NCBI GenBank assembly: GCA_964613785.1
Contig: CAZTJT010000001.1
Location: forward strand, 49,869-113,868
From: an uncultured Rikenellaceae bacterium
GTDB lineage: Bacteria > Bacteroidota > Bacteroidia > Bacteroidales > VadinHA17
DNA: 64,000 nt
Direction: 5' to 3'
Made by a program: the position numbers and the translations under genes. Below the pieces are notes generated by a model. It had not been told where the DNA came from and did not search any database. It worked only from the letters and a program-made list of their open reading frames with translations. Position 1 is the stretch's first letter, and each line of letters starts with the position of its first letter. Positions 20,184 through 40,594 of the stretch are shown piece after piece.

Positions 20184-20349
20184 GCAGAACGGTGACCGAA
20201 GACAGATGAATGATGATAGATGCCCGGACGACCCACCCTCTGTCCGACGCTTTCTTCGAATATAGTCCGCCACGACGGACTAAGTCCGAAACATAGTGTA
20301 AGAGGGACAGCACGATTTAATAAGAGTGACTAAAGCAATATGGTGAAAG

Positions 20350-22071
20350 ATGCAGTTCACAATTCAGGTTAATAACAAAAAGATAAAAGCCGAAAAGGGT
20401 GAAACCATACTATCGGCCCTGAACCGTAACGGTATAATCATTCCTACCCTTTGCAGGATGAAGGAGTTTACACCAACTGGCGCATGCAGGATGTGTGTTG
20501 TGGAAGTAGAGGGAAAAGAGCGGCTTGTTACAGCCTGTTCACAGCCTGTTGAGGAATGGATGAGAATAAAGACACATTCTCCGAGAGTGATCACTGCCCG
20601 TAAAACGATTGTAGAACTGCTGCTTTCAAACCATCCAGACGACTGTCTGTATTGCGACAGGAACCTGAATTGCGAACTGCAGAATCTGTCAGAAGAACTC
20701 AACATCAGGGAAAGGAGAATAAAGGGTAAGAAAATAAAGCCCCGACTCGATCAGTCGAGCCCTGCAATTGTCAGGGAACTCGCAAAATGTATACTGTGCG
20801 GCAGGTGTATCAGGGTATGTGAGGAATTAATTACCTGCACATCTGTCGATTTCATCAACAGGGGAAGACTGACTCATGTTGGGACTGCAATGGACAGGGA
20901 TTTTAATTTTTCAAGCTGTATTCAGTGCGGACAGTGTGTACTTGTATGCCCGACCGGTGCTCTTCATGAAAAGCACAATATAACTGAGGTCCAGGAATAT
21001 CTTAATAAGCACGATGTTGTTAAAGCCATTCAGTATTCTCCTTTTGTCCCTGCCGGAATAGCAGAAGAGCTCGGAATAAAATACAACCGGGATTTTGACA
21101 AGAACCTTAATGCCATACTCCGAAAAATAGGCTTTGATAAAGTTTATTCAACCGGTACAGGTGCAGATGTTTGCATATCGGAACTCGCCGATCATTTGTC
21201 ATTCAAACTGGAAAATAATGAAGAAAATCCTCTCTACATAACAGCCTGTCCGGCCTGGGTCAAGTATGCAGAACAATCGATGCCTGAAATTATTCCGGAT
21301 CTTTCGACAGTTAAATCACCTCAGCAGATTGCAGGGATCCTTATCAAGACAGTAGTAGCCGATCAGATGAAAGTAAAACCTGAAAAGATATTTTCAGTGT
21401 CGGTTACTCCGTGTATGGCGATGAAATATGAAGCTCGGCGCGACGGGATGATGAGAAAGGGTATCAGCGATGTTGATGCAGTCATGACGGTTAGAGAGCT
21501 GGCAAGGCTAATCAGGCTTAATGGAATAGATGTTTCCAACACCGACCGGGAGCCTGCTGATGAACCTCTAGCCGGAAGAAGTTCTTCAGCAGTTCTTTCG
21601 GAACTCTCAGGGGGTATGGCCGAAGGTGTCGTCAGGCTGCTCACATACCGAAAAACAGGTAAAGATGCTGACAGGCAGCTACTGAAAAGACTAAGAGGTT
21701 CGGGCTCTTTCAGGGATTGTACCGTAAAAGCCGGCGACATTGAAATAAGAATCGCTGTAGTTGACGGACTTACAGGACTTGAGAAGCTTAAATCCTCAGT
21801 TTCTTCCGGCGCAAAATACCATCTGGTTGAAGTAATGACCTGCCCTGGAGGCTGTATTCACGGAGGAGGCCTTCCACAGGTTGCATCAAGAGAAGACCTT
21901 AAGAACAGAGCCAGGCTGATATATCAGGCTGATGAAACAGAAGCAATCTCACTGCCTGAGAAATCGCCTTCAGTCATTAATCTTTATGAGAAACTTATTA
22001 AGAACAACAAAGAGATCAGCGACAAAAAAATATTTCATACCCATTTTGAAAAAAAGAGCGTTCTTTTGTGA
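20350..22071 (+). CDS. hydA: [FeFe] hydrogenase large subunit, M3 architecture (2Fe2S, His-ligated 4Fe4S, 2x 4Fe4S, H-domain) with atypical L1 motif
   Basis: NuoG-like N-terminus including HPDDCLYCDRNLNC. L1 is ITACPAW where the canonical motif is TSCCPxW. L2 is TPCMAMKYE and L3 is EVMTCPGGCIHGGG. 573 aa, collinear with clostridial CpI. Confidence 0.8.
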   Translation: MQFTIQVNNKKIKAEKGETILSALNRNGIIIPTLCRMKEFTPTGACRMCVVEVEGKERLVTACSQPVEEWMRIKTHSPRVITARKTIVELLLSNHPDDCLYCDRNLNCELQNLSEELNIRERRIKGKKIKPRLDQSSPAIVRELAKCILCGRCIRVCEELITCTSVDFINRGRLTHVGTAMDRDFNFSSCIQCGQCVLVCPTGALHEKHNITEVQEYLNKHDVVKAIQYSPFVPAGIAEELGIKYNRDFDKNLNAILRKIGFDKVYSTGTGADVCISELADHLSFKLENNEENPLYITACPAWVKYAEQSMPEIIPDLSTVKSPQQIAGILIKTVVADQMKVKPEKIFSVSVTPCMAMKYEARRDGMMRKGISDVDAVMTVRELARLIRLNGIDVSNTDREPADEPLAGRSSSAVLSELSGGMAEGVVRLLTYRKTGKDADRQLLKRLRGSGSFRDCTVKAGDIEIRIAVVDGLTGLEKLKSSVSSGAKYHLVEVMTCPGGCIHGGGLPQVASREDLKNRARLIYQADETEAISLPEKSPSVINLYEKLIKNNKEISDKKIFHTHFEKKSVLL

Positions 22072-22128
22072 AAACTGGAAATTTAAAAAGAGATAAGGAA
22101 AAAATGGATTGTGATCAATAAACCATTA

Positions 22129-22136
22129 TACATTTG
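22129..22136 (+). promoter_or_regulatory. candidate -7 box (TACATTTG) for the hydS-HK operon
   Basis: TAnnTTTG match 36 nt upstream of the ATG at 22173. Confidence 0.3.
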
Positions 22137-22172
22137 TGCCGTTTAATCATTGACTAATTAAACTTTTAAGAA

Positions 22173-24131
22173 ATGCTGGTATATACGATAAAAGAGCTTT
22201 GCCGGACATGTTACACCTGTGTGAGGGAGTGTCCTGCCAAAGCCATTCGTATAGTCGGGGGTCAGGCTGAAGTCATTGACGAAAGGTGCATAGCATGCGG
22301 GAACTGCACTAAAGTATGCAGCCAGGGAGCGAAAGTGTTCCTTAATACCACCGACAGGGTATTAAGGCTTCTGGAAAGTAGTAAAAAAGTTGCAGCTATT
22401 GTAGCTCCAAGTTTCCCTGCAGAGTTTATTGGTATCGACCATAAGGTACTGGTAGGAATGATACGGGCTGTTGGGTTTGAGATGGTGCTTGAAGTGTCCT
22501 TTGGCGCTGACCTGGTTGCTGACAGATACAAGCAGCTTGTTATGCAAAACACAGGCTACTATATTTCCTCCGATTGCCCCTCCATCGTTAATTATATCAA
22601 GCATTATCATCCGAACCTGGTTGATAATCTTGCACCTGTTGTCTCACCCATGGTTGCCATGAGCAGAGTGGTCCGTTCAGAGTATGGCAATGATACGAGG
22701 ATAGTGTTTATCGGACCTTGCGTGGCAAAAAAAGCCGAGAGTGCAGAGATTGATGAAGCGATTACATTTACGGAGCTCAGGGAGCTGCTTGATCTACTCA
22801 GGATAGGAACAGAATCAATAGCACCATCTGATTTTGATCCCCCTTACGGAGGACGCGGAGCCATTTTCCCGGTAACACGCGGCTTACTACAGACAGCACA
22901 TATTAATGATGACGCAATAACCGGAAATATCATAGCAGCAGAGGGAAGAACCGACTTCCAGGGTGCACTCAAGGAATATGAAGCCGGACTTATTTGTAAT
23001 CAGCATATGGAACTTTTATGCTGCGAAGGCTGTATAATGGGCCCCGGATTGTCAAAAAACGGTAAACAATACAACAGGAGGGCGCTTGTAAGTAATTATG
23101 CCAACCAGAAGATGATTGCGATGGATCATAAGTCATGGCAACAGTACTTTGACCTCTACTCTTCACTCGACCTTTCGGTGAGGCACAAGCCTGAAGAAAG
23201 CATCATTACAGTTCCGGATGAAGCTGAAATAGAGTCGGTGCTTGTCTCAATGGGCAAACTGACCAAAAAGGATCATCTTGACTGTGGCGCATGCGGCTAT
23301 GAAAGTTGCATTGAACATGCAATAGCAATAAAAAACGGGCTTGCAGAGGTGGAGATGTGTCTGCCTTATACTATTGAAAAGTTGCATAATTCTGTAAGAG
23401 AACTGGCTCTTTCGAATGAGAAGCTCACATCAATGAAACAGGCTCTTAAGCAGTCTGAAAAACTTGCACACATGGGTCAGCTTTCTGCAGGAATCGCGCA
23501 TGAACTCAATAATCCCCTGGGAGTTGTAATAATGTACAGTAATATTCTTCTGGAAGAAAGTGCTCCGGGTGATCCTGTTAGAGATGATCTGAAGCTTATC
23601 GTTGAACAGGCCGGAAGATGCAAAAAGATCGTAGGCGGACTACTTAATTTTGCCCGTAAAAACCAGGTTAACCATCAGCTGATCAATATCAGGGAACTTG
23701 TCGATCACAGCCTTGAGAGCCTTATTGTTCCGGAAAATGTGGGAATAGAAATCTCTGACAAGACAACCAACCCATCTGCCATGCTTGATCCCGAGCAGAT
23801 GACACAGGTGCTTACCAATCTCATTAAAAATGCATTTGAGGCTATGCCTGACGGAGGATCAATAAAGCTTATTCTCGAAGATACCCTGAGTGATGTCTCA
23901 TTTACAGTAAAAGATTCAGGTACAGGTATCAGAGAAGAAGACAAGGCAAAGATCTTTGAGCCATTTTTTACCACAAAGGGAATCGGACGGGGAACCGGAC
24001 TGGGCCTTGCAACTGCTTACGGGATAGTGAAAATGCATAAAGGACAGATCACAGTCGATTCAAATATTGACCCTGCGAAGGGACCTACCGGAACCAGCTT
24101 CAGGATAGTGCTGCCCAGAGGAAAAGAATAA
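22173..24131 (+). CDS. sensory [FeFe]-hydrogenase-like domain fused to a histidine kinase
   Basis: N-terminal [12 protein letters not shown] and [11 protein letters not shown] motifs. L1 ISSDCPSI, L2 [11 protein letters not shown]3 [24 protein letters not shown] motif and a coiled coil. H-box [12 protein letters not shown], followed by HATPase N and G boxes (DSGTGI, GTGLGL). Confidence 0.8.
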
Positions 24132-24180
24132 AAAGTTAACGGCAAATGGAAAAATTATTATGTGATGGGTAAATTTTTTG

Positions 24181-24591
24181 ATGAAATTCATGATGATGAA
24201 AAAGAGTGATTTTACTATTCTGGTGGCCGATGATGACCCTGACTATCTTTTTCAGACCATTTCAAACCTTGAAAAAGCAGGGTATAAGACTATTGCTGCT
24301 GAAAGCCAGGCTGAAGCTGAAACAATAATATCGCGTTTCAAACCCAGCCTCGCAATATTCGATCTTATGATGGAGAATGATGACAGCGGATTTATTCTAT
24401 GTTACAAGATAAAGAGAAAGTACCCGGATGTGCCGGTCATACTTGCAACTGCTGTAGCCCATGAGACAGGAATATCCTTCAGCCTCGATTCAGAAAGTGA
24501 CAGAATGTGGATAAGGGCTGACAGGTATCTTGAAAAAGGTATACGTTCAGATCAGCTTGATCAGGAAATTATGCGTCTTTTAAAACTATGA
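24181..24591 (+). CDS. stand-alone response-regulator receiver protein
   Basis: ILVADDDPD ... LAIFDLMM ... receiver pattern with no output domain. The exact start is ambiguous (TTG 24178, or ATG 24181/24190-24196). Confidence 0.75.
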   Translation: MKFMMMKKSDFTILVADDDPDYLFQTISNLEKAGYKTIAAESQAEAETIISRFKPSLAIFDLMMENDDSGFILCYKIKRKYPDVPVILATAVAHETGISFSLDSESDRMWIRADRYLEKGIRSDQLDQEIMRLLKL

Positions 24592-24592
24592 T

Positions 24593-25726
24593 ATGGCTGT
24601 ATTAAAAGTTCTCGTCATTGACGACGAACCGGGTATCCGTTCAGGAGTTACCAGGATACTGAGCAACTTTCATGTGAATTATCCATTTATGGATGAGGAT
24701 TATACATTTGAAGTTAAAGAAGCAGCAACCGGGGAGGATGGTATCAGCATGATTGAAACAGAAAATCCTGATATACTGCTTCTTGACAATAAACTACCTG
24801 GCATGCAGGGTATTGAGGTTCTGGAGTATATAAGGAACAAGAAATATGATACCGTGGTAGCGATGATCACTTCATACGCTTCCCTTGATGTTGCTCTTAA
24901 AGCTCATAAGTTTGGTGCAACTGATTTTATCCCCAAGCCGTTTACCCCTCAGGAACTGAAATCAAGCATTGAGAATATAACCAAACAGCAGTATCTCAAA
25001 AGAATTACCCACCGGATGAATGAGGAGGGTAAAAAGATCAGATATCAGTTCCTTTCTGTTCTGTCGCATGAGCTTAAAGCACCGCTTAATGCTATTGAAG
25101 GATATCTGAGGATGATGCAGGAAAAACAGATGGGTGAATATATTCGCGACTATGATACCGCCATTGAACGGTCACTCCAAAGAATTCAGGGTATGAGAAA
25201 TCTAATAATGGATCTGCTCGATTTTACGAAAATAAGGCTTGAAAGGAAAGATGAAAAGATCGAACCTGTAAATCTGTCTGAAATTGCTTCAGGTGCAATC
25301 ATAACAGTTCAACCTTATGCAATCCAGATGGAAGTAACTGTAAAGCTTGATGTAAAATCTGATGCGGTGATAATGGCTGATCCGACCGACATGGAGATCA
25401 TTTTCAATAACTTGGTTTCCAACTCTGTTAAATACAATAAGCCCGGCGGAAAAGCTGAAATCACCATTGATGGCGATGAAAACAACGTTATAGTTTATTT
25501 CTCCGATACAGGCATAGGAATTACTGAGTCGGACAAGGAGAATCTGTTCACAGAGTTCGTAAGAATCAAGAATGAAAGGACTAAAAATATTTCAGGAAGC
25601 GGTCTGGGGCTTTCAATTGTAAAGAAGGTTATTGAACTTTATAATGGAACCATATCAGTTGAAAGTACACCCGATATAGGCACTACCTTTATTGTCAGGC
25701 TTCCTAAGAAACCCGAAAAAAAATAA
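24593..25726 (+). CDS. hybrid receiver-histidine kinase
   Basis: N-terminal receiver (VLVIDDEPG ... ILLLDNKLPGM ... KPF). HisKA LSHELKAPLN. HATPase motifs NSVKYN, DTGIGI and GSGLGLSIV. Confidence 0.8.
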   Translation: MAVLKVLVIDDEPGIRSGVTRILSNFHVNYPFMDEDYTFEVKEAATGEDGISMIETENPDILLLDNKLPGMQGIEVLEYIRNKKYDTVVAMITSYASLDVALKAHKFGATDFIPKPFTPQELKSSIENITKQQYLKRITHRMNEEGKKIRYQFLSVLSHELKAPLNAIEGYLRMMQEKQMGEYIRDYDTAIERSLQRIQGMRNLIMDLLDFTKIRLERKDEKIEPVNLSEIASGAIITVQPYAIQMEVTVKLDVKSDAVIMADPTDMEIIFNNLVSNSVKYNKPGGKAEITIDGDENNVIVYFSDTGIGITESDKENLFTEFVRIKNERTKNISGSGLGLSIVKKVIELYNGTISVESTPDIGTTFIVRLPKKPEKK

Positions 25727-29730: not shown

Positions 29731-29770
29731 AATCTATTGCTCTTTTAGTTTTTAATTGTTTTTAAATTAA

Positions 29771-29799
29771 AAAGGCTTACCGCACTGTGGTAAGCCTTT
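29771..29799 (-). terminator. intrinsic-terminator-like hairpin in the lyase leader
   Basis: 11-bp stem AAAGGCUUACC/GGUAAGCCUUU with a 7-nt loop, followed on the minus strand by UUAAUUUAAAAAC. It ends ~40 nt upstream of the lyase ATG. Confidence 0.5.
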
Positions 29800-29821
29800 A
29801 TCTGATATTGTGTCACCGGCA

Positions 29822-29911
29822 CTAATCTATTTCCAGACTCACCAACCAGGTTCTGGAATAATAGTAATAATACCTGTGCAGATTATTCTTTGCCTTCATT
29901 TTATTAAGCAT
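29822..29911 (-). CDS. Tyr-rich leader peptide ORF (25 or 29 codons)
   Basis: ATG at 29911 or 29899, TAG at 29822-29824. Reads M(LNKM)KAKNNLHRYYYYYSRTWLVSLEID. The five consecutive Tyr codons occupy 29858-29872. Confidence 0.5.
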   Translation of the reverse strand: MLNKMKAKNNLHRYYYYYSRTWLVSLEID

Positions 29912-29915
29912 ATGG

Positions 29916-29963
29916 CAAACCTAGCTTAAATTTATTCAAAAAACAACAGTAGTGGCAAATATA
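29916..29963 (-). promoter_or_regulatory. two candidate -7 boxes for the leader-lyase transcript
   Basis: The reverse complement of 29916-29923 is TAGGTTTG and that of 29956-29963 is TATATTTG. Both match TAnnTTTG. Confidence 0.35.
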
Positions 29964-30107: not shown

Positions 30108-32651
30108 CTATCTGATTATCTGACCGAAAAAAATAGAATTGAGGAACAGCTTGTTCGTACCATACCATACAGCTCTGAAGTTTGTGTCGTCGTAAAACGA
30201 AATAATCCCGTTTTTGTGAACGGTTGCATAGGCTGAGTTTTTTATCCTGTTTAAGTTTTCATCGGAACAGTAACCGCTGAGCAAAGGATTATCCAGATAT
30301 CTGACAGGATTATTATAGTTGTCGGAACTGACTCTTGCAGCATTCTGTGTCGACTTGAAAACCGGTATAATATTACTTGTGTAGCCGAAGCATAATGGAT
30401 GCGTAAGGTCAAGTTTTGTCTGAAAAATTGATCCGGGGATCTGGTGAACCTGGCGATCTGAGCCCTGGTTTGAATAGGCAGGCTCCCTGGGTTTAACAGT
30501 TACCTCAGGGATAAATTCAATTTCAGCAAGATTGTTTTTCACCAGCCACCTATTACCTCCCTCGATTGCAATGAGATTCCTTCCGGGGCGTAACCATGAT
30601 TTGATCTTTTCAATCCCTGAGGGAGAGATCTCGGGTGAACCAGCAATTACAATGCTATTGTATCTGTTAAGGTCAGAGGCTCCGAATCTGGAAACAGGAA
30701 TAAGAGTAACCGGTATCCCGAATCTTGAGTCGAGCAAATGCCATATTTCACCTGAGATTGAGCTACTGATTCCGTCACCAACAACCATGGCAACAGAAGG
30801 TTTCACTAGAACCTGGATAGTGTTGCTTCCCAGATCAACTCCCGCTTCCGTCAGACCTGTCTGAACTCCGTAAATCGATATGCCGCATTCAATCGATGTT
30901 TTTTTCATTAGATCGTGCAGCTGTTCAGTCTCAAACGGCTGAACCGAACAGGGAATTACAATTGTTCCTGCGTCAAATGTTCTTTTCCCGTTACCGATCA
31001 TACAGGTGAACCTCTTTGTTGATAACCTGGTAATTATTCCGTTTTCCTGAAGCCTGAAAAGAGCTTTGGGAGCATAGTAGTCAGTCCATTCAAAAAGATA
31101 TGCATAAGGTTTGTCGGGTGAAATCAATTGACCTGCCACATCTGGAGGTTCCGTTACTTCCATACCTGTAAGTGCATCAATTTCTTTTAACTGCATAAGG
31201 GGTGCATATTTCAGATTGAATGACATGGGTAATACCCATGTAGAAACATCGTAAAAAATACTGTCGCTGAAATCTTTGACAGGTTCAAAGAGGCTTCTTA
31301 TGAAACGGTATTCCACCTGTTTGAGAGGAACTATGTAACTATCAGCGGACCTGTAAATCGTGCCATTCTTCTCAATATCTCTTGCTGACCTGTAAACCTT
31401 TATCTTATGTTGGAGCAGGATGTTAACGAATTCTTTTAGTCTTGATTTATCTGCCGGTTCTCCAAATATATATGCTTTCACAGGATGCTTTTCAGCTTCG
31501 TCAAGAGCATCTCTGTAAAAACTTATCTGACTTTGAAGCAGCTCGTTCTTCATTTTCAGCCCGGCTTCAAGTGTTGAAAGTGATACCGTGAACTGATTCC
31601 TGATTGCAAAAGGAAATGATAAAAGCATTCCAGGGGTTTCTCTCAGATGGCCCTTAGTGCCGGCCTGTTCAAACAAAATTCCGACAGATCCATGAATATC
31701 GGGATAAGATGATCCCTTGCCCACATAAAAATCATCAAAGCTTTCTTCGGTGAAGTACAGGCTGCCAAGCTCGTTGAGAAACATCTCATGGAACTTCGCT
31801 ATTTGTGCCGTAAGTTTGAAGTTAATTTCAGGTGTAAGCGGATTGTTTCGGCTCTGAACACCTGGTTGAAAAAAGAAGGTTTCATTTGGTCCGGTTTCAT
31901 GATGATCGGTGTTGATGTTAGGCTTCCACCTGTGAAATGCCGCCACTCTGCCTTTTGATTCGGGATGCTGAAGCATTATATAGTCGCGGTTAAGGTCGAA
32001 CCAGTAATGATTGGTTCTGCCACCCGGCCAGCTTTCGCTGAACTCCCATGAAGCTGGATCGGGATTATCCCTGAGGCTTCTTGACGCATTAACCCATGTG
32101 GAGTGCCTCTGCATGCCATCAGGATTAAGTGATGGATCAATGAGTACAACAATATTATTCAGTAGTTCATTCATTTCAGGGCCCTCTCCGGCAACAAGAT
32201 AGTATGCTATGAGCGCAGAGGCATTCTGTGCGCTCGACTCATTGCCGTGTATCCCATACCCCATTTTTATGAATACTGGCATCTTACTAATATCGGCCTT
32301 ATCCGATTCAGCCGGATCGCAAAGCTTGAGGTGCTGCTTCCTAAGAGCCTCAAGATTCCTTATGTTTTCAGGTGAACTGATTATTAGATGCCCGAGAGGG
32401 CGGTTTTCATAGCTTCTGCCATATTCTTCCCATTCAGCCCGGTCAGAAACCTCAGACAGCTCCAGCATATACGAATAAAGCCTGTCGTGTGAAAGATGCC
32501 ACTCACCAATCTCATGCCCGAAAAACTCTTTTGGTGAAGGTATATCAGAATTATAGCTTACATCCTGTGGAAGGTAATAGCTTATCGATACCTGGGCTCT
32601 GGTATAACAGGCTAAATGGATCAAAAAGAAGGCTAGGAATATTTTTTTCAT
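30108..32651 (-). CDS. M14-family zinc carboxypeptidase-like secreted protein
   Basis: Signal peptide MKKIFLAFFLIHLACYTRAQ and M14 motifs (YGIHGNESS). It has a large C-terminal extension. I prefer ATG 32651 over the TTG at 32687. Confidence 0.75.
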   Translation of the reverse strand: MKKIFLAFFLIHLACYTRAQVSISYYLPQDVSYNSDIPSPKEFFGHEIGEWHLSHDRLYSYMLELSEVSDRAEWEEYGRSYENRPLGHLIISSPENIRNLEALRKQHLKLCDPAESDKADISKMPVFIKMGYGIHGNESSAQNASALIAYYLVAGEGPEMNELLNNIVVLIDPSLNPDGMQRHSTWVNASRSLRDNPDPASWEFSESWPGGRTNHYWFDLNRDYIMLQHPESKGRVAAFHRWKPNINTDHHETGPNETFFFQPGVQSRNNPLTPEINFKLTAQIAKFHEMFLNELGSLYFTEESFDDFYVGKGSSYPDIHGSVGILFEQAGTKGHLRETPGMLLSFPFAIRNQFTVSLSTLEAGLKMKNELLQSQISFYRDALDEAEKHPVKAYIFGEPADKSRLKEFVNILLQHKIKVYRSARDIEKNGTIYRSADSYIVPLKQVEYRFIRSLFEPVKDFSDSIFYDVSTWVLPMSFNLKYAPLMQLKEIDALTGMEVTEPPDVAGQLISPDKPYAYLFEWTDYYAPKALFRLQENGIITRLSTKRFTCMIGNGKRTFDAGTIVIPCSVQPFETEQLHDLMKKTSIECGISIYGVQTGLTEAGVDLGSNTIQVLVKPSVAMVVGDGISSSISGEIWHLLDSRFGIPVTLIPVSRFGASDLNRYNSIVIAGSPEISPSGIEKIKSWLRPGRNLIAIEGGNRWLVKNNLAEIEFIPEVTVKPREPAYSNQGSDRQVHQIPGSIFQTKLDLTHPLCFGYTSNIIPVFKSTQNAARVSSDNYNNPVRYLDNPLLSGYCSDENLNRIKNSAYATVHKNGIISFYDDTNFRAVWYGTNKLFLNSIFFGQIIR

Positions 32652-32689: not shown

Positions 32690-32760
32690 TTTTATTGATT
32701 ATCGATAATTATTTTACCCGTTACGGGTATTCTTTTATTGATTTTCGATAATTATTTTAC
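32690..32760. repeat. 28-bp direct repeat (27/28 identical), 43-bp period; copy A holds a 12-bp palindrome
   Basis: Copy A (32690-32717) is ttttattgattatcgataattattttac. Copy B (32733-32760) is ttttattgattttcgataattattttac. Copy A contains the perfect palindrome ATTATCGATAAT (32698-32709). Confidence 0.6.
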
Positions 32761-32903
32761 ACTTTTTGTCTTCTGTCATAATGTCCTGAGTCGCCCCATT
32801 CGTCGCAGATCATCCCATTATCAGCAAGGCTTATCCTTTCTTCAAGGCAGTTTCGGCAATCTTCATCTGAATCAGAAGAGCATGGTTTATTGATGTTTGT
32901 CAT
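32757..32903 (-). CDS. hypothetical 48-aa acidic Cys-containing protein
   Basis: Below the ORF-track size cutoff. Reads MTNINKPCSSDSDEDCRNCLEERISLADNGMICDEWGDSGHYDRRQKV. Its composition is noticeably less AT-rich than the flanking spacers. Confidence 0.3.
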   Translation of the reverse strand: MTNINKPCSSDSDEDCRNCLEERISLADNGMICDEWGDSGHYDRRQKV

Positions 32904-33269: not shown

Positions 33270-35327
33270 ATGTTAAATGACAAACTGATAAATCCTTCCA
33301 GCATAGTTGTTGTTGGGGGATCCGACGATCTTTTTAAACCAGGCGGCAAAATTCTAAGAAACATAATTGATGGAGAATACAAAGGTGATCTGTTTGCCGT
33401 AAATCCAAAACAGGATATAATTCAGGGCGTAAAGTCATACAGGGATATTAATGATCTTCCTCCTGTTGATCTTGCAATTCTGGCCATACCCTCAAAATAT
33501 TGTTACCAGGTTGTTGACATACTTGTCAGGAAGAAGGATACGAGGGCATTTATTATAATTTCAGCAGGATTCAGTGAGGCCGGGGAGGATGGTAAGAAGA
33601 TGGAGGAGGAGATCGCCCGGCTTATTGATGAATCAGGTGGATGCCTTATTGGTCCAAACTGTATTGGGGTTGTGACCCGTACATACCAGGGTGTATTCAC
33701 TACTCCTGTTCCAAAGCTTTCGGAAAAAGGGTGCGACTTTGTAAGCGGTTCAGGAGCTACAGCATTGTTCATCATCGAATCTGCAATTCCAAAAGGTCTG
33801 CGGTTCTCGAGTATGTTTTCAGTAGGAAACAGTGCTCAGACAGGAGTTGAAGAAGTTCTTGAATATTGGGATCTTACTTATGATCCGGCCGTAAGTTCTC
33901 CCATAAAGCTCATTTATGTAGAAGCAATCCCTGACCCTGACAAGCTTCTGCACCATGCTTCTTCTCTGATACGAAAGGGATGCAGAATCGCAGCGATAAA
34001 AGCAGGAACCACTGAAGCGGGAAGCAGGGCGGCATCATCGCATACAGGAGCGTTGGCCTCTTCCGACTCAGCCGTTGAAGCTCTTTTCAGAAAGGCAGGA
34101 ATAGTACGTTGTTCCGGACGCGAAGAACTGACCACAGTGGCATCTGTATTTATGCATAAACCTTTGAAAGGAAGGAATATTGCTATCGTTACACATGCCG
34201 GAGGGCCTGCAGTTATGCTAACGGATGCACTGTCGGCAGGCGGAATGAATATACCAAAACTGGAAGTTGAAGATCAGAAACGGATTCTTGCCATGATGAA
34301 TCCGGGTGCTTCAGCGGTGAACCCGATCGACATGATAGCCACCGCTACAATAGAACAGCTTGACATGGTAATTGAGTATGTTGATAAGCATCTGGACATT
34401 ATAGATGGTATGAGCGTAATTTTCGGAAACAATGGACTGAATGACATGACTGAAGTATATGATCTTCTCCATAGGAAAATCATGGAATGCAATAAACCTC
34501 TGTATCCTATTCTGCCTTCTGTATCAAGCTCATTTAGAGAACTGGAGTATTTCATGGGCAAAGGTCATGTTAATTTCCCCGATGAGGTTGTTTTGGGAAG
34601 AGCCCTAACAAAAATCTCAAATACTCCATATCCAGCTGAAGAAAAAATCTTTCTTGAAAAGGTTGATGTCCCCAAGATTAGGAAGATTATCGAAAGTTCG
34701 GATAATGGATACCTTGAGCCTGTGGTTATACAGCAGCTTCTCAGAGCTGCCCAGATACCTCTTGTTAAGGAAGCCATAGTCACAACCAGAAGGGAGGTGA
34801 TAAAAATGGCGGAAAAGATTGGATATCCCCTGGTGCTTAAAGTAGTAGGGCCTGTACATAAATCTGATGTAGGAGGTGTTACCCTTAACATCAAGTCTCA
34901 GAAACACCTTGAAGCCGAGTTTAAACGGATGAAAAAGATAAGTGGTGTTACAGGGGTGATGATTCAGGAGATGCTTTCGGGAACAGAACTTTTTATAGGA
35001 GCTAAGTATGAGCCGAGGTTCGGACATATAATTCTATGCGGATTGGGAGGGATATTTGTGGAGGTGCTTGGTGATGTTTCCTCCGGCCTAGCACCTCTGA
35101 CGTTCAATGAGGCCAATTCAATGATAAGGAGCCTGCGGGCTTATAAAATCATCAAAGGTACCAGAGGGAAACCGGGTATAAACGAGACAAAATTCGCCGA
35201 GATAATTGTAAGGCTTTCAAGCTTGCTGAGATTTGCAACAGAAATAAAGGAACTGGATCTTAATCCGCTGATTGGAAGTCAGAAAGGTATTACGGTAGTT
35301 GATGCAAGAATCAGGATTGAAAAATGA
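33270..35327 (+). CDS. ADP-forming acyl-CoA synthetase (fused alpha/beta, acetate--CoA ligase family)
   Basis: N-terminal CoA-binding/succinyl-CoA-synthetase-like domains and a C-terminal ATP-grasp (GYPLVLKVVGPVHKSDVGGV). 685 aa. Confidence 0.8.
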   Translation: MLNDKLINPSSIVVVGGSDDLFKPGGKILRNIIDGEYKGDLFAVNPKQDIIQGVKSYRDINDLPPVDLAILAIPSKYCYQVVDILVRKKDTRAFIIISAGFSEAGEDGKKMEEEIARLIDESGGCLIGPNCIGVVTRTYQGVFTTPVPKLSEKGCDFVSGSGATALFIIESAIPKGLRFSSMFSVGNSAQTGVEEVLEYWDLTYDPAVSSPIKLIYVEAIPDPDKLLHHASSLIRKGCRIAAIKAGTTEAGSRAASSHTGALASSDSAVEALFRKAGIVRCSGREELTTVASVFMHKPLKGRNIAIVTHAGGPAVMLTDALSAGGMNIPKLEVEDQKRILAMMNPGASAVNPIDMIATATIEQLDMVIEYVDKHLDIIDGMSVIFGNNGLNDMTEVYDLLHRKIMECNKPLYPILPSVSSSFRELEYFMGKGHVNFPDEVVLGRALTKISNTPYPAEEKIFLEKVDVPKIRKIIESSDNGYLEPVVIQQLLRAAQIPLVKEAIVTTRREVIKMAEKIGYPLVLKVVGPVHKSDVGGVTLNIKSQKHLEAEFKRMKKISGVTGVMIQEMLSGTELFIGAKYEPRFGHIILCGLGGIFVEVLGDVSSGLAPLTFNEANSMIRSLRAYKIIKGTRGKPGINETKFAEIIVRLSSLLRFATEIKELDLNPLIGSQKGITVVDARIRIEK

Positions 35328-35406
35328 TATAGATACGAATCAGATGAACAATGCAAAATAATATGTATGTTCGGGGCTTCAAATAATAACTTAAAAATTA
35401 AACAAT

Positions 35407-35832
35407 ATGGTAATACCTCAACTTTCAGTTTTCCTTGAGAACAAATCAGGCAGGCTCACCGAGGTATTGGAAGTGCTTGGCAAAGAACGCATCAGAATAA
35501 CAGCATTGAGTGTTGCTGATACCTCTGAGTTCGGGATCCTGAGAATGATTGTCTCCGATCCGGAAAAAGCCAAAGGACTTCTAAAGGATCATAATTTTAC
35601 CGTTAACCTCTCTGATGTCATATCGGTTATGGCACCTGATGAGGCCAGGTATTATGCTAAAATCCTCAGGATTCTGTCAGACCAGGAAATAAGTATTGAA
35701 TACACATATGCTTTTTCGCGTGGTTCCAAATCAATAATTATCCTTCGGTGTAACAACAATGAACAGGCTATCAAGGCACTGAAGGATCACGAAATGGAAC
35801 TTATTAACGCCAGCGACCTTTACAAGATCTGA
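35407..35832 (+). CDS. ACT-domain protein
   Basis: 141 aa made of two ACT-like halves. Its stop lies 1 nt before the CoA ligase start. Confidence 0.75.
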
Positions 35833-35833
35833 T

Positions 35834-37135
35834 ATGGAAATATGGAACAGGCATTTTGAATGCATGGATCGTGACGCTCTGAGGAAAGTGCAGAGTGAAC
35901 GTCTTATTGAAACAGTTGAAAGGATATATTTTAACGTGCCCTATTACAGGCACAGGATGCAGGAACAGGGAATTGGACCTGAGAGTATAAGGTCGATTGA
36001 TGATATTACCATACTCCCATTTACCACTAAAAAGGATCTGAGGGATAATTATCCTTATGGATTGTTTGCAGTTCCGTTGAGTGAAATAGTACGTATCCAC
36101 GCATCATCAGGTACCACCGGAAAACCCACTGTCGTTGGATATACAAGGAATGATATAGCCACATGGTCGGAGGTGATGGCTAGAACTTTGACCTGTGCAG
36201 GTGCCGACAGGAACGATTTTATTCAGATCGCATACGGTTACGGACTTTTTACCGGCGGCCTGGGGCTTCATTATGGAGGAGAGAAAATAGGAGCCTCGGT
36301 GATCCCTATTTCAGGTGGTAATACAATGAGGCAAATACAGCTGATGCACGATTTTGGAAGTACGGTTCTTGCCTGCACTCCTTCATATGCATTATTCCTT
36401 GCAGAGGCTATAAATGAAAGCGGAATCAACAGGGAAGAGTTAAGGTTAAGGGTAGGTGTGTTTGGAGCTGAACCATGGACCGAGAACATGCGGAGAGAAA
36501 TCGAGAGCAAGCTGAAAATAAAAGCTATTGATATTTACGGACTTAGTGAGATCATAGGCCCAGGAGTGGCGAGTGAATGTCTGTTCCAGGAGGGTCTTCA
36601 TATCAATGAAGATCATTTCTACCCCGAGATTATCGACCCGGAAACAATGCAGGTACTTCCGGAGGGAAGTACAGGCGAGCTGGTATTTACAACTATTACA
36701 AAGCATGGATTGCCTCTTATCAGATACAGGACAAGGGATCTTACGCAGCTGAATTACAGCCGGTGCAAATGCGGGCGAACCCTTGTTAGGATGTCAAAAT
36801 GCCTAGGCAGGAGCGATGATATGTTGATCATACGGGGAGTTAACCTGTTCCCTTCGCAGGTTGAAAGTATACTTCTGGAAATGGGTGGGATAAAACCCCA
36901 TTATCAGTTGATTGTAGACAGGATTAATAATCTTGACACCCTCGAACTTAGAGTGGAAGTTGACGAAGCATTTTTCCTTGACAGAATAAGCCAGCTGGAA
37001 GGACTAAGGTCAAAAATCCAGAATAATCTCGAGAGTTCATTAGGTTTGGGTATAAAGGTGACTCTTGTGGAACCGAAGGTTATTGAGAGAAGTGAAGGCA
37101 AATCAAAAAGGGTTATTGACAAAAGAAAATTTTAA
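35834..37135 (+). CDS. phenylacetate--CoA ligase family protein
   Basis: PaaK-like N-terminus and the AMP-binding motif [11 protein letters not shown]. 433 aa. Confidence 0.8.
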
Positions 37136-37144
37136 GATATTTAA

Positions 37145-38467
37145 ATGAACGATATACCAATTTCAGATGCCATAATCAAATCGATCAGGGATAAAATGGG
37201 GCTTCAGCTGCTTGGTACTGCCTCGATCCGTGAGATTGTGGCGCTTGTAAACCGGATTGAAACTAAGACCGGGATGAAATTTGTCAGGATGGAAATGGGT
37301 GTCCCCGGGCTTCCTTCCCCATCGGTGGGGATCGAAGCCGAAATAAAGGCATTACGCGACGGTGTTGCTGCAGTATACCCTGATATAGCAGGATTACCGG
37401 CGTTAAAAAAAGAAGCTTCCCGTTTTATTAAACTCTTCATGGACGTTGATATTGATCCGGCAGGATGTGTACCTACAGTAGGTTCAATGCTTGGTTCAAT
37501 GCTGTGTTTTCTGGTTGCCAACAGGAACGACAGGACCAAGGAAGGAACACTTTTCATCGATCCGGGATTTCCGGTCCAGAAACAACAGGTCAAAATGCTC
37601 GGGCATGACTATTATTCATTTGATGTATACAATTACAGGGGGAAAAAGCTGAGGGCTAAGCTTGAGTCTTACCTTGAAACTGGTAAAGTCTCTTCCCTCC
37701 TTTATTCCAATCCTAATAATCCTGCATGGATCTGCCTAAACGAGGATGAACTTGCAACGATCGGCGAACTTTCAAGAAAATATGACGTTATTGTCATTGA
37801 AGATCTTGCTTATTTCGGAATGGATTTCAGGAAGGACTATACAAATCCGGGTAAACCTCCATATCAGCCCACAATAGCCCATTATGCCGACGATTATATA
37901 ATACTGATCTCAAGTTCAAAAATCTTCAGCTATGCAGGGCAGAGGATTGGTATTATGGCAATTTCCAATCACCTTTATAACCGATCATATCCTGACCTCC
38001 TGAGATACTATTCATCCGACAAATTCGGACATTCCGCAATATTTGGTGCGCTTTATGGCCTCTCAGCCGGTGTTGCTCATTCGGTTCAGTACGGACTTGC
38101 TGCTTTGCTGAAAGCAGTGAACGACGGAACTTTAATATTGAGGGAATCACTCTCAGAATACAGCGAGAAGGCAAAAATAATGAAAGGAATGTTTACAAAT
38201 AACGGATTTAAAATAGTGTATGACAGGGATCTTGATGAATTAATAGGTGACGGATTTTATTTTACCATTTCCTATCCCGGAATGACGGGAGAGGAATTGC
38301 TTGATGAATTACTTCATTACGGCATAAGTGCGATCACTCTTGACACTACTGGCAGTGAAAGGTGCGAAGGTCTAAGAGCCTGTGTTTCACAGGTACCAAG
38401 GACTCTTTTCAGTGATCTTGATCACCGGTTGAGGCGCTTCAATGAGGATCATAAAGAAAGAAATTAA
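37145..38467 (+). CDS. PLP-dependent aminotransferase (class I/II)
   Basis: 440 aa. NPNNPAW and SSSKIFSYAGQRIG (PLP lysine) motifs. Confidence 0.8.
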   Translation: MNDIPISDAIIKSIRDKMGLQLLGTASIREIVALVNRIETKTGMKFVRMEMGVPGLPSPSVGIEAEIKALRDGVAAVYPDIAGLPALKKEASRFIKLFMDVDIDPAGCVPTVGSMLGSMLCFLVANRNDRTKEGTLFIDPGFPVQKQQVKMLGHDYYSFDVYNYRGKKLRAKLESYLETGKVSSLLYSNPNNPAWICLNEDELATIGELSRKYDVIVIEDLAYFGMDFRKDYTNPGKPPYQPTIAHYADDYIILISSSKIFSYAGQRIGIMAISNHLYNRSYPDLLRYYSSDKFGHSAIFGALYGLSAGVAHSVQYGLAALLKAVNDGTLILRESLSEYSEKAKIMKGMFTNNGFKIVYDRDLDELIGDGFYFTISYPGMTGEELLDELLHYGISAITLDTTGSERCEGLRACVSQVPRTLFSDLDHRLRRFNEDHKERN

Positions 38468-38480
38468 AAACCAGCTTATT

Positions 38481-38705
38481 ATGGCAAAAGTAAGAGGTAG
38501 TATAGTTGTAAATGTTGATAAGTGCAAAGGATGCGAAATTTGTATGGTATCGTGTCCTACTGGAACCATTGCAATGGCAATGGAAGTTAATTCCAAAGGA
38601 TATAATTATGCCTATCCTGCGAATCCCGATCTGTGCATTGGATGTGCTAATTGTGCGGTTGTATGCCCTGATGGCGTAATTACTGTCTATAAAACAAAAA
38701 TCTAG
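38481..38705 (+). CDS. 4Fe-4S dicluster ferredoxin (delta subunit of 2-oxoacid:ferredoxin oxidoreductase)
   Basis: CKGCEICMVSCP and CIGCANCAVVCP. I prefer ATG 38481 over the track start at 38442, which overlaps the aminotransferase. Confidence 0.75.
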   Translation: MAKVRGSIVVNVDKCKGCEICMVSCPTGTIAMAMEVNSKGYNYAYPANPDLCIGCANCAVVCPDGVITVYKTKI

Positions 38706-38712
38706 TTGGTTT

Positions 38713-39783
38713 ATGGAAAGAGAATTAAGGTTGATGAAGGGTAATGAAGCTGTTGCGGAGGCTGCCATAAGGGCAGGAGCGGATGGCTATTTCGGTTACC
38801 CTATAACTCCACAGAGCGAAATTCTGGAGTATCTAATGGAGGCTAATCCTGCTGAAACGACTGGAATGGTTGTCCTACAGGCAGAAAGCGAGCTTGCTGC
38901 CATCAACATGGTTTACGGAGGTGCAGGATGTGGTAAAAAAGTCATGACTACATCATCATCTCCGGGGATAAGCCTCAAACAGGAAGGCATAACCTATATT
39001 GCAGGGGCGGAACTGCCCTGCCTTATTGTAAATGTAGTCAGGGGAGGTCCCGGGCTTGGAACTATCCAGCCTGCTCAGTCAGATTATTTCCAGGCAGTAA
39101 AAGGAGGAGGACACGGTGATTATCACCTTATCGTTTTAGCTCCGGCATCGGTTCAGGAAATGGCCGACTTTGTGGAACTGGGTTTTGACCTTGCCTTCAG
39201 GTACAGAAATCCTGTTATGATCCTTTCTGACGGAGCCATTGGCCAGATGATGGAGAAAGTTTATCTGAAACCGTACCGGGAGCGATCTAAGGATGTTCCG
39301 GAGTGGGCAACTACAGGAAAACCTCCTACACGTGAAAGGAATATAATAACATCACTTGATCTGGATCCGGAAGCTCAGGAGAGATTCAATTTCAAGCTGA
39401 TAGCAAAATACAACGAGATCAGGGAAAAAGAGGTGAGGTTTGAAGAGTTCCAGTGTGACGACGCAGAATATCTGCTTGTAGCCTATGGCACAAGCGCCAG
39501 GGTCTGCCAGAAGGCAATACAGCTGGCAAGGCAGGAAGGAATTAAGGCCGGACTACTGAGGCCAATTACACTTTTCCCCTTTCCTTCAAATAGGATTATT
39601 GAACTGACCGGCAAGGTGAAGGGGATATTGTCGGTTGAAATGAGTGCAGGCCAGATGGTTGAGGATGTTCTTCTTGCTGTAAATGGAAAGGTACCTGTTA
39701 AACATTACGGAAGGATGGGAGGTATGATACCCACTCCGGAAGAAGTTGTTGAGAATCTTAAATCAAAAATTATAGGAGGTTAA
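38713..39783 (+). CDS. 2-oxoacid:ferredoxin oxidoreductase alpha subunit (VorB/KorA-like)
   Basis: 356 aa with the typical N-terminus MKGNEAVAEAAIRAG...YPITPQSE. Confidence 0.85.
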   Translation: MERELRLMKGNEAVAEAAIRAGADGYFGYPITPQSEILEYLMEANPAETTGMVVLQAESELAAINMVYGGAGCGKKVMTTSSSPGISLKQEGITYIAGAELPCLIVNVVRGGPGLGTIQPAQSDYFQAVKGGGHGDYHLIVLAPASVQEMADFVELGFDLAFRYRNPVMILSDGAIGQMMEKVYLKPYRERSKDVPEWATTGKPPTRERNIITSLDLDPEAQERFNFKLIAKYNEIREKEVRFEEFQCDDAEYLLVAYGTSARVCQKAIQLARQEGIKAGLLRPITLFPFPSNRIIELTGKVKGILSVEMSAGQMVEDVLLAVNGKVPVKHYGRMGGMIPTPEEVVENLKSKIIGG

Positions 39784-39786
39784 ATA

Positions 39787-40578
39787 ATGGCTGAAGCTAC
39801 CGGATTAAAGGAAATAATAAAACCTGAAAATCTTGTTTACAGGAGAACAGGTATTATGACTGATGCTACCCTTTCTTATTGCCCGGGATGCGGACACGGA
39901 ACTGTGCATCGTATATTGGCTGAGCTGATTGAGGAGGAGGGTCTGCAGTCGAAGGCAATAGGAATTTCACCGGTCGGATGTTCTGTTCTTCTTTATAATT
40001 TTCTTGATATTGACTGGCAGGAGGCAGCTCACGGAAGGGCTCCTGCACTTGCAACTGCTATTAAAAGGCTTATGCCCGACAGGTTTGTCTTTACCTATCA
40101 GGGTGATGGCGATCTTGCTGCAATCGGTACGGCGGAAACAATTCATGCCTGTAACCGCGGTGAAAATATCCTCATAATCTTTATTAATAATGGCATTTAT
40201 GGGATGACCGGAGGACAGATGGCCCCTACAACACTTCCGGGAATGAAATCATCAACATCACCTTATGGAAGAGATACCAGGACGATGGGAAATCCACTGA
40301 AAATGACTGATATAGTTGCTACATTACCTGGAACATATTATGTAACACGGCAAAGTGTTCATACTCCCGCAAATGTCAGAAAGACAAAAAGAGCAATGCG
40401 TAAGGCCGTCCAGTATCAACAGCTCAACAGGGGCACCTGTTTTGTGGAGATCGTCTCCAATTGTCCCTCCGGATGGAGAATGACGCCGGTCCAGTCAATA
40501 AAATGGATGGAGGAAAACATGTTCCCGTATTATCCTCTGGGAGATATGAAGGTTCCTGAAGAACAGTCCGAAAAATAA
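39787..40578 (+). CDS. 2-oxoacid:ferredoxin oxidoreductase beta subunit (TPP-binding)
   Basis: CPGCGHG, GDGDLAAIG and NNGIYGMTGGQ motifs. Confidence 0.85.
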   Translation: MAEATGLKEIIKPENLVYRRTGIMTDATLSYCPGCGHGTVHRILAELIEEEGLQSKAIGISPVGCSVLLYNFLDIDWQEAAHGRAPALATAIKRLMPDRFVFTYQGDGDLAAIGTAETIHACNRGENILIIFINNGIYGMTGGQMAPTTLPGMKSSTSPYGRDTRTMGNPLKMTDIVATLPGTYYVTRQSVHTPANVRKTKRAMRKAVQYQQLNRGTCFVEIVSNCPSGWRMTPVQSIKWMEENMFPYYPLGDMKVPEEQSEK

Positions 40579-40594
40579 TCCTAAACCATCAGCT

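Follow-up and report, generated by a model that had tools for sequence, protein, structure and literature searches.

A putative tyrosine-codon attenuator upstream of a tyrosine phenol-lyase-like gene in Bacteroidales

Introduction

Tyrosine phenol-lyase (TPL) is the classic tyrosine-induced, phenol-producing catabolic enzyme, of interest as a source of phenol in the gut and in digesters. In a 64,000-nucleotide stretch of DNA from an uncultured Rikenellaceae bacterium (GenBank assembly GCA_964613785.1, contig CAZTJT010000001.1, positions 49,869 to 113,868; the whole stretch is referred to here as the window), a gene for a TPL-like beta-eliminating lyase is preceded on the minus strand by a short open reading frame (ORF) with five consecutive tyrosine codons and by a hairpin resembling an intrinsic terminator. 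How does a gene of this kind come to lie behind what looks like a switch that opens when charged Tyr-tRNA is scarce? A first-pass annotation of the sequence read the region as a ribosome-mediated attenuator and offered two ways out of the paradox, namely that the enzyme works in the synthetic or salvage direction, or that the peptide senses an inducer as TnaC does. The analysis presented here indicates that the element is very probably a leader-peptide (ribosome-mediated) attenuator. On the grounds of conservation, pairing, a geometry like that of histidine leaders and the placement of the stop codons, a classical Tyr-codon attenuator wired to a TPL-like lyase is the likely explanation of the whole.

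Results and Discussion

Anatomy of the leader

The minus strand between positions 29600 and 30200 was read for leader anatomy, and the features recognised are collected in Table 1 together with those found elsewhere. Everything that the first-pass annotation had described was recovered at the same positions: the leader ORF with its five tyrosine codons and stop codon, the 7-bp hairpin that starts at the last tyrosine codon, in which UUCCAGA (29858-29852) is complementary to UCUGGAA (29837-29831), and the 11-bp stem with its 7-nt loop and U-rich tract. This last hairpin reads AAAGGCTTACC-ACAGTGC-GGTAAGCCTTT (29799-29771), followed by TTAATTT, and was independently picked up by a terminator scan. 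The proposed 9-bp pairing, including two G-U pairs, between GGUGAGUCU (29843-29835) and the 5′ arm of the terminator, AGGCUUACC (29797-29789), was likewise confirmed. Both of the -7 boxes that had been proposed are present, however only the proximal one is conserved in orthologous leaders; the distal box has no TAnnTTTG counterpart in locus L003, one of the two closest genome relatives. No TTTG is placed as a -33 element should be, since the nearest one (29940-29937) is just 13 nt from the -7 box.

Table 1. Features of the leader, the regulated gene, the neighbouring genes and the related leaders. Coordinates are those of the window unless a locus (L number) is given; A1 is the alignment of 20 leaders.
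Feature	Sequence or description	Location	Strand	Basis or remark
-7 promoter box, proximal	TAGGTTTG (TAnnTTTG, Bacteroidota type)	29916-29923	-	Same place in 20/20 aligned leaders, A1 columns 1-8
Second TAnnTTTG match, distal	TATATTTG	29956-29963	-	Not conserved; probably outside the element
Leader peptide ORF with stop	MKAKNNLHRYYYYYSRTWLVSLEID	29822-29899	-	Start aligned with orthologous leaders, 19-27 nt past -7 box
Regulatory codons	Five Tyr in a row, TAT TAT TAC TAT TAT	29858-29872	-	Read from sequence; runs of 2-9 in orthologues
Segment 1	5′ strand of anti-antiterminator; last Tyr codons and UCCAGA	29852-29864	-	Minimum free energy structures, helix 1:2 comparison
Segment 2	5′ part GGUGAGUCU (29843-29835), antiterminator; 3′ part (29837-29827) pairs with segment 1	29827-29843	-
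Leader stop codon	TAG	29824-29822	-	Read from sequence
Spacer motif, conserved	UAGUGCYGRYRACAC	29805-29824	-	A1 columns ~111-128, between segment 2 and terminator
Segments 3 and 4	Intrinsic terminator, 11-bp stem, 7-nt loop, U-rich tract	29764-29799	-	Sequence and terminator scan
Regulated gene	TPL-like beta-eliminating lyase, 488 aa	28264-29730	-	NCBIfam, PDB matches, active-site alignment
M14 zinc carboxypeptidase	N-terminal signal peptide	30108-32651	-	Upstream of leader in the window
Small Cys-containing ORF, 48 aa	MTNINKPCSSDSDEDCRNCLEERISLADNGMICDEWGDSGHYDRRQKV; ...NKPC..DC.NCLE...GEWGDS.HY	32757-32903	-	Head of gene string
Divergent cluster	Acyl-CoA ligase, oxidoreductase and other genes	33270-41152	+	Syntenic in most relatives
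His-run leaders		L086, L088, L090, L092, L095, L098, L103, L105, L110, L114, L127, L130, L132, L143, L144, L151, L177, L190, L194, others		Metagenome contigs
Trp-run leader before trpE	MIIRQNNIWWWWRSLLLNREEG	L108, ~1783-1871	reverse	Same terminator stem
Trp-run leader before trpD	MNQFVSNNAWWWHNS	L129, ~1177-1245	reverse	Same terminator stem
Cys-rich leader	MRTQNHIHPCCHTCLKGKSMVVCICM, segment 2 AGGTAAGTCG	L087, ~4496-4624	reverse complement	Same terminator

The leader frame admits two starts. Read from the ATG at 29911 (MLNKMKAKNNLHRYYYYYSRTWLVSLEID) to the TAG, the product is M(LNKM)KAKNNLHRYYYYYSRTWLVSLEID, and a second in-frame ATG lies at 29899, the longer form carrying the additional residues MLNK. 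Just 4 nt separate the end of the proximal -7 box from the first ATG, whereas orthologous leaders begin 19-27 nt past the box; the second ATG is therefore probably the true start, giving a predicted peptide of 25 aa.

Within the window, this leader is the sole short ORF with at least four consecutive tyrosine codons, and the loci of 80 relatives (described below) contain, besides the Tyr leaders themselves, one further such ORF, of 56 aa, on the opposite strand in L009. The 154-nt leader has a minimum free energy (MFE) of -44.7 kcal/mol (z = -4.13), and none of 200 shuffled sequences was as stable. The spacer motif between segment 2 and the terminator forms a small 3-bp GUG/CAC hairpin in the folds and possibly represents a pause element, a small structural hairpin or a protein site; it is unaccounted for by the three-helix model.

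Conservation among relatives

Relatives were collected by a protein-based scan with one genome per species, yielding 80 loci (numbered with the prefix L), and 20 leader sequences were aligned (A1). In the closest relatives (72-86% identity), a short ORF with a tyrosine run precedes the lyase ATG by 150-185 nt and encodes peptides such as MNIDHYRHYYYYCRLTDVSLDLV, MKFNNNLYRYYYYYFMIPLVSLDVK, MGLFRLNIGIYYYYYYGRFKMVGPVIN and MDLVKLNISIYYYYYYYYYRIHT. The records of these close relatives are metagenome-assembled genomes of Bacteroidales or Rikenellaceae except for L009, labelled Chloroflexota, probably through a binning error since its leader and synteny are typical of Bacteroidales. Contigs of leader-bearing assemblies include JAXGLU010000001.1, CAVXEU010000002.1 and CAXXWV010000001.1. 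In a neighbour-joining tree, the leader-bearing lyase genes fall within one clade of 23, in 20 of which the Tyr-run ORF, the anti-antiterminator, the antiterminator and an intrinsic terminator 25-45 nt before the lyase are all found, so that the comparison of orthologous loci proposed in the first-pass annotation came out in favour of its reading. No Tyr-run ORF survives in the three other clade members, L012, L019 and L030. The -7 box and the terminator are still there in L019 and L030, whereas L012 is without a terminator; in all three the attenuator looks to have decayed secondarily.

The rest of the family, which includes members from Verrucomicrobiota, Alistipes, Rikenella and Anaerophaga among others (63-68% identity), has no Tyr leader. 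Across loci L022 to L080 none was found, and a hairpin of any kind lies upstream in just eight; the flanking genes of these loci are heterogeneous and ORF calls in high-GC contigs are spurious. Contigs carrying lyase homologues at L009, L041, L044, L058 and L060 bear labels that include Chloroflexota, Burkholderiales, Rhodocyclaceae, Niveibacterium and Azoarcus; the betaproteobacterial lyase group forms a branch of its own, for which horizontal transfer or mis-binning is possible.

The -7 box, start, run, segment 2 and terminator keep near-fixed spacing, with 125-137 nt from box to terminator. Across orthologues the run varies from 2 to 9 codons, and the length differences are multiples of three. 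Tyrosine codons also vary synonymously, as in L003, which has TAC TAC TAC TAT TAC in place of the TAT TAT TAC TAT TAT of the window. Such synonymous variation, the multiples-of-three lengths and a frame that in every case terminates within or next to segment 2 indicate that the run is read as codons. Conservation of the peptide is confined to the run, past which it continues for 2 to 15 codons before ending.

Metagenome contigs were scanned with a pattern built from segment 2 and the terminator only (AGTC, 30-60 nt, RGGCTTRCC, loop, GGYRRGCYTTTTT), which returned 120 loci, 19 of them with a tyrosine run just upstream. All 17 of the Tyr-run contigs with enough sequence have the lyase 25-45 nt after the terminator, and the other two end at the contig edge. 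No Tyr-run leader was found before any other gene, either at the relatives' loci or on the metagenome contigs.

This association bears on a simpler account, in which the hairpin only terminates the upstream M14 carboxypeptidase gene, the Tyr-run ORF being a (UAY)n repeat that arose by chance or is not translated. The M14 gene of the window does end 309 nt upstream on the same strand, with just a weak terminator-like site directly after it. However, L006, L007, L009, L011 and L015 have the M14 gene on the other side of the lyase, downstream, and retain the leader and hairpin, so the hairpin cannot be an M14 3′ end; at many loci the upstream gene is instead a small same-strand ORF or a divergent acyl-CoA ligase gene. 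The conserved -7 box of the leader itself, the synonymous codon variation, the conserved start, the open frame and the constant association with the lyase on the metagenome contigs also speak against it. The account, which the first-pass annotation had kept in view as a mere 3′ end of the M14 mRNA, was therefore rejected on the differing gene order, and its chance of being correct is next to nil.

Alternative helices in the leader RNA

The proposed topology has segment 1 pairing with segment 2 (helix 1:2, the anti-antiterminator), segment 2 with the 5′ arm of the terminator (helix 2:3, the antiterminator) and the two terminator arms with each other (helix 3:4). In A1 the terminator has 91% of cells paired and three pairs with compensatory change, clearly above slid controls, with an AU/GC switch of 12:5 at columns 151/165. 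The antiterminator, in which segment 2 (GGTRAGTCY) meets RGGCTTRCC, has 83% of cells paired compared with at most 59% in slid controls. The 5′ strand of helix 1:2 consists of the last two or three codons of the run and roughly six bases beyond it; with a single register imposed, 69% of cells are paired (at most 45% when slid), six of ten pairs show compensatory change, and none of 500 shuffles reaches the observed count of doubly changed cells. At the end of the run a UAC/UGC (Tyr/Cys) change is compensated on the opposite strand. RNAalifold predicted no consensus pairs in the 1:2 region because the register differs between sequences, and the helix was evaluated as a hand-specified one. Segment 2 is conserved whether it is translated (as V-S-L, V-G-P or A-S-P), spans the stop codon (L006, L007, L009) or lies past it (L008, L014), and this indifference to stop position indicates that the constraint acts on the RNA. 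Over 31 distinct leaders, the median free energies of helices 1:2, 2:3 and 3:4 are -7.5, -12.8 and -14.7 kcal/mol, respectively.

Several results weigh against a switch of the classical type. Some leaders have few tyrosine codons, mixed with those for cysteine, histidine and phenylalanine (YYCC, YYCYYC, YYHFCY). Helix 2:3 is almost without covariation, both of its strands being nearly invariant. When the full-length leader was folded with the tyrosine run masked, as the first-pass annotation had suggested, the terminator gave way to 2:3 in L001 and L021 only and persisted in the other 18 of the 20 sequences. Equilibrium folding cannot show such a switch, therefore transcripts truncated before segment 4 were folded instead, and with the run and the following 10 nt masked helix 2:3 formed in all 20; the masking experiment thus bears out the proposal for the truncated transcript and not for the full-length one. 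In the truncated transcript, 2:3 is already the MFE structure without masking in 14 of 20 sequences, which means that helix 1:2 is weak and that the switch must be kinetic. In this folding model the decisive variable would be whether or not a ribosome sits on segment 2 as segment 3 emerges. Taken with the recurrence of the helices in relatives and the compensatory changes, the masked folds support the 1:2, 2:3 and 3:4 topology.

Leader geometry and the direction of the response

In the Tyr leaders 10-16 nt separate the end of the run from segment 2, which would place segment 2 just past the reach of a ribosome stalled on the last codons of the run. Relative to the first base of segment 2, stop codons fall into two groups, one between 8 nt upstream and 3 nt downstream and the other 17-30 nt (mostly 20) downstream. 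From either placement a terminating ribosome is expected to cover segment 2.

The same metagenome scan also returned 36 leaders with histidine runs (MINTVIRHHHHFPNE, MRFNTIHHHHHILTSQFGRRR, MMVLFLHHSHVHCPFGG and others), two with tryptophan runs and one rich in cysteine (Table 1), all with a terminator stem, GGCTTRCC/GGYRRGCC, identical to that of the Tyr leaders. Most His-run leaders with downstream sequence have a HisG-like ORF within 15-55 nt, confirmed as hisG at L088 and L190, and the downstream genes sampled with NCBIfam are hisG, trpE, trpD and a serine O-acetyltransferase. The last of these, a cysE/EpsC-like gene, lies about 160 nt downstream of the Cys-rich leader of L087, which may be a cysteine attenuator judging from its sequence. 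In 13 of the 15 distinct His leaders analysed, segment 2 is complementary to the 5′ arm of the terminator; across the 15, the distance from run to segment 2 is 11-20 nt, and the stops are spread over an interval that reaches from 9 nt upstream of the first base of segment 2 to 16 nt downstream of it. The geometry of the Tyr leaders is the same as that of these histidine biosynthesis leaders. A shared design is claimed here for the two groups, and common descent is not proven. Deep homology was considered and set aside, as matches found with nhmmer scored only about 10 bits above terminator-only matches and the loci had been preselected by pattern.

Since hisG, trpE and trpD must be starvation-induced, the Tyr element is most simply read alike, with shortage of Tyr-tRNA leading to read-through, and by analogy with these leaders this direction of response is quite probable. 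Transcription would begin a few bases past the conserved -7 box, and the 25-aa leader would be translated. With Tyr-tRNA plentiful, the ribosome would run to the stop codon and cover segment 2, the terminator would form, and transcription would end about 35 nt before the lyase ATG. With charged Tyr-tRNA scarce, the ribosome would stall on the tyrosine run and mask segment 1, leaving segment 2 free 10-16 nt downstream to pair with the 5′ arm of the terminator before the 3′ arm is made. RNA polymerase would then read through into the lyase and, in many relatives, into a downstream gene for a secreted M14 carboxypeptidase. Given the anatomy, conservation, pairing potentials and geometry observed, we infer both this sign of response and its consequence, a lyase that serves tyrosine supply in this Bacteroidales clade.

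A second reading keeps the RNA elements and inverts the sign. If efficient translation of the run under plentiful tyrosine led to fast ribosome release, helix 2:3 could form and a catabolic lyase would be expressed. That 2:3 is more stable than 1:2 and is the MFE structure of most truncated, unmasked transcripts agrees with this possibility and makes the outcome dependent on timing, and the neighbouring genes look catabolic. However, every leader has its stop within segment 2 or just next to it, where a terminating ribosome covers that segment. In addition, the genes that follow the leaders sharing this terminator (His, Trp and Cys), of which the His leaders share the spacing too, are hisG, trpE, trpD and cysE-like genes, which are necessarily starvation-induced. 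An inverted response is accordingly considered unlikely.

A third possibility is a sensor of the TnaC kind, in which ribosome arrest, brought about jointly by the Tyr-rich peptide being made and by free tyrosine (or phenol), would induce a catabolic TPL at high tyrosine. The related enzyme tryptophanase is under the control of the leader peptide TnaC. Since characterised tpl genes are tyrosine-induced (PMC10170061), the paradox would vanish. The peptides found here are conserved in the tyrosine run alone, however, with run length and C-terminal end both variable and no conserved Pro-stop or Trp/Asp motif; the conserved intrinsic hairpin and antiterminator take the place of a Rho site, and the geometry is that of the His leaders. 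A TnaC-like sensor was rejected on the lack of conservation outside the run and is highly improbable. Of the two ways out of the paradox offered by the first-pass annotation, the synthetic or salvage direction is therefore the one favoured, and the inducer sensor the one disfavoured.

The lyase

The regulated gene product passes the NCBIfam PRK13238 'tryptophanase' subfamily model (565.9 bits, cut-off 285) and falls below the equivalog cut-offs for both TPL (TIGR02618, EC 4.1.99.2; 444.3 compared with 720.7 bits) and TnaA (338 compared with 825.8 bits). Its best PDB matches are tyrosine phenol-lyases (E ~1e-113 to 1e-115), with tryptophanases at ~1e-98 and weaker. It agrees with Citrobacter freundii TPL at F36, Y71, R100, F123, T124, N185, D214, K257, M379, E380, R381, R404, F448 and F449. 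Fifteen active-site positions were compared in the window protein and its 80 relatives, and 14 are identical in all 81 members; the sole difference is M288F in the aromatic substrate pocket, with possible effects on which substrates are preferred or on the kinetics of synthesis. The TPL-type specificity proposed in the first-pass annotation is upheld by the conservation of T124, M379-E-R381 and F448-F449. The lyase thus combines TPL-type specificity residues with membership of a distinct subfamily, having N- and C-terminal extensions relative to enterobacterial TPL. Public pipelines label members of this subfamily inconsistently, as tryptophanase or as tyrosine phenol-lyase, and thousands of homologues are present in metagenomes.

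An anabolic role for the lyase is possible, with chances put at slightly under even. The reverse TPL reaction, which makes tyrosine from phenol, pyruvate and ammonia, has a kcat 1.5 times that of the forward reaction, and TPL also converts serine and phenol to tyrosine by beta-replacement, so that tyrosine formation by TPL is established in vitro (PMC10170061). Tyrosine could thus be supplied from phenol with pyruvate and ammonia, from phenol with serine by beta-replacement, or as peptide-derived tyrosine freed by the carboxypeptidase; a secreted carboxypeptidase that releases C-terminal residues fits such a purpose. Three considerations tell against anabolism. The Km values of the reverse reaction (12 mM for pyruvate, 20 mM for ammonia and 1.1 mM for phenol) call for millimolar substrates; characterised TPLs are catabolic, with tpl genes induced by tyrosine through TyrR and CRP (PMC10170061); and the peptidase, aminotransferase, oxidoreductase and acyl-CoA ligase neighbours would suit amino-acid fermentation equally well. 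Literature searches on TPL in Bacteroidales or on physiological tyrosine synthesis by TPL returned nothing specific. More narrowly, a 'tyrosine synthase' that salvages environmental phenol under Tyr-tRNA shortage, alongside a co-regulated secreted carboxypeptidase, is proposed only tentatively.

The classical sign could also serve another end, in which the lyase removes a tyrosine antimetabolite or analogue, a substituted tyrosine that competes at the tyrosyl-tRNA synthetase and makes ribosomes stall on tyrosine codons. TPL accepts many ring-substituted phenols and tyrosines (PMC10170061), and the family-wide M288F lies in the aromatic pocket, both of which are consistent with such a role. No supporting gene context was found at the loci, however, and the carboxypeptidase linkage fits amino-acid acquisition better. 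This proposal is pure speculation, and a most improbable one.

Comparison with known systems

The element resembles Escherichia coli trpL, hisL and pheL in that a short ORF carries a run of cognate codons overlapped by segment 1, helices 1:2, 2:3 and 3:4 exclude one another, an intrinsic terminator immediately precedes the regulated gene, and the stop codon is so placed that a terminating ribosome covers segment 2. The element differs from them in its tyrosine codons, its TPL-like lyase target, and its Bacteroidota host with a -7 TAnnTTTG promoter. Searched against Rfam, the window gave no match at the gathering score, the best being Phe_leader (RF01859) at 18.7 bits compared with the required 55 (E = 8.9), and the Tyr-leader locus L004 gave no leader-family match at E ≤ 1. 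The weak sub-threshold matches seen overall were to Phe_leader, Thr_leader and Bacteroid-trp. His leaders also gave only sub-threshold matches (Thr_leader, ~35 bits), and Bacteroidota-type His leaders appear to be uncatalogued; the Trp leader of L129 scored 41 bits on Bacteroid-trp against a gathering score of 49. With the leaders of Bacteroidota (Bacteroid-trp, RF01692, and the His, Trp and Cys leaders described above) the element shares the terminator stem, as well as the presence of a complementary segment 2 with most of the His leaders analysed and the spacing with the His leaders. Those leaders, however, carry His, Trp or Cys runs before hisG, trpE, trpD or serine acetyltransferase genes, whereas the Tyr version is found only before the lyase, and sequence similarity beyond the terminator is weak.

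The nearest described case is the aroR leader of Corynebacterium glutamicum (Phe-Tyr-Phe), another Tyr-containing leader peptide that attenuates an aromatic amino-acid gene, in that case aroF, however it has a single tyrosine codon and no run, its target is DAHP synthase, and it is reported to respond to phenylalanine limitation with no effect of tyrosine availability (PMC11802643). Enterobacterial TPLs (C. freundii, Erwinia herbicola) belong to the same family as the lyase, with about half of the residues identical in HMMER alignments and the same catalytic and phenol-binding residues. The window lyase is set apart from them by its score below the TPL equivalog cut-off, its terminal extensions and M288F. 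Their genes are TyrR/CRP-controlled and tyrosine-induced (PMC10170061), whereas an attenuator with predicted induction by tyrosine shortage is found here.

The tnaC-tnaA arrangement is similar in that a leader peptide precedes a gene of the same beta-eliminating lyase family. TnaC senses free tryptophan through a specific arrest sequence and blocks Rho-dependent termination, whereas the present element relies on a run of codons in an otherwise variable peptide and on an intrinsic terminator that competes with an antiterminator. The first-pass annotation was aware of no Tyr-leader attenuator for this gene family, and the full-text literature searched likewise contained neither a Tyr-run leader nor an attenuated tpl. 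The mechanism itself is known, leader-peptide attenuation being textbook material; the sensed amino acid is new and the target unexpected.

Neighbouring genes

At the five loci where the M14 gene lies directly downstream of the lyase it is on the same strand, with a gap of 34-75 nt, and there it is probably co-transcribed and co-controlled under the Tyr attenuator. The M14 peptidase is always found next to the lyase, on one side or the other depending on the genome, which suggests functional coupling. At several loci a conserved small same-strand ORF precedes the leader, with a divergent ADP-forming acyl-CoA ligase gene beyond it, and whichever gene lies upstream, the leader is there and so is its conserved -7 box. 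The 48-aa ORF at the head of the gene string in the window has tblastn matches in 11 orthologous loci (45-66% identity), just upstream of the Tyr leader or the M14 gene, and no match in NCBIfam.

The divergent cluster encodes an ADP-forming acyl-CoA ligase, an ACT-domain protein, a PaaK-like phenylacetate-CoA ligase (586 bits, just below cut-off), an aminotransferase, a ferredoxin and a VorB-type 2-oxoacid:ferredoxin oxidoreductase. These genes could serve amino-acid fermentation, or the reductive carboxylation of acyl- or aryl-acetates to amino acids. Elsewhere in the window, a multimeric [FeFe]-hydrogenase-like set (Complex1_51K, Fe_hyd_lg_C; 18249-25726, plus strand) is followed by genes for a hydrogenase-like sensory histidine kinase, a response regulator and a hybrid kinase, then Rex and RibF.

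Conclusions

The surprise of this locus is a TPL-type gene behind a switch design common to the hisG, trpE and trpD leaders. As a putative attenuator, the element would be a compact, testable Tyr-tRNA sensor for Bacteroidota, and, seen beside the leaders with His, Trp and Cys codons, it suggests that this phylum has an attenuator family that is still largely uncatalogued. If the tentative 'tyrosine synthase' proposal is true, the lyase would provide a shikimate-independent route to tyrosine, analogous to the salvage of indole by tryptophan synthase, and the leader would be the first amino-acid-specific Tyr attenuator. If the predicted sign of the response is true, annotation of this widespread TPL-like subfamily as phenol producers would be misleading for this clade, and phenol would be a nutrient, as a tyrosine precursor, for abundant Bacteroidales of anaerobic digesters and sediments.

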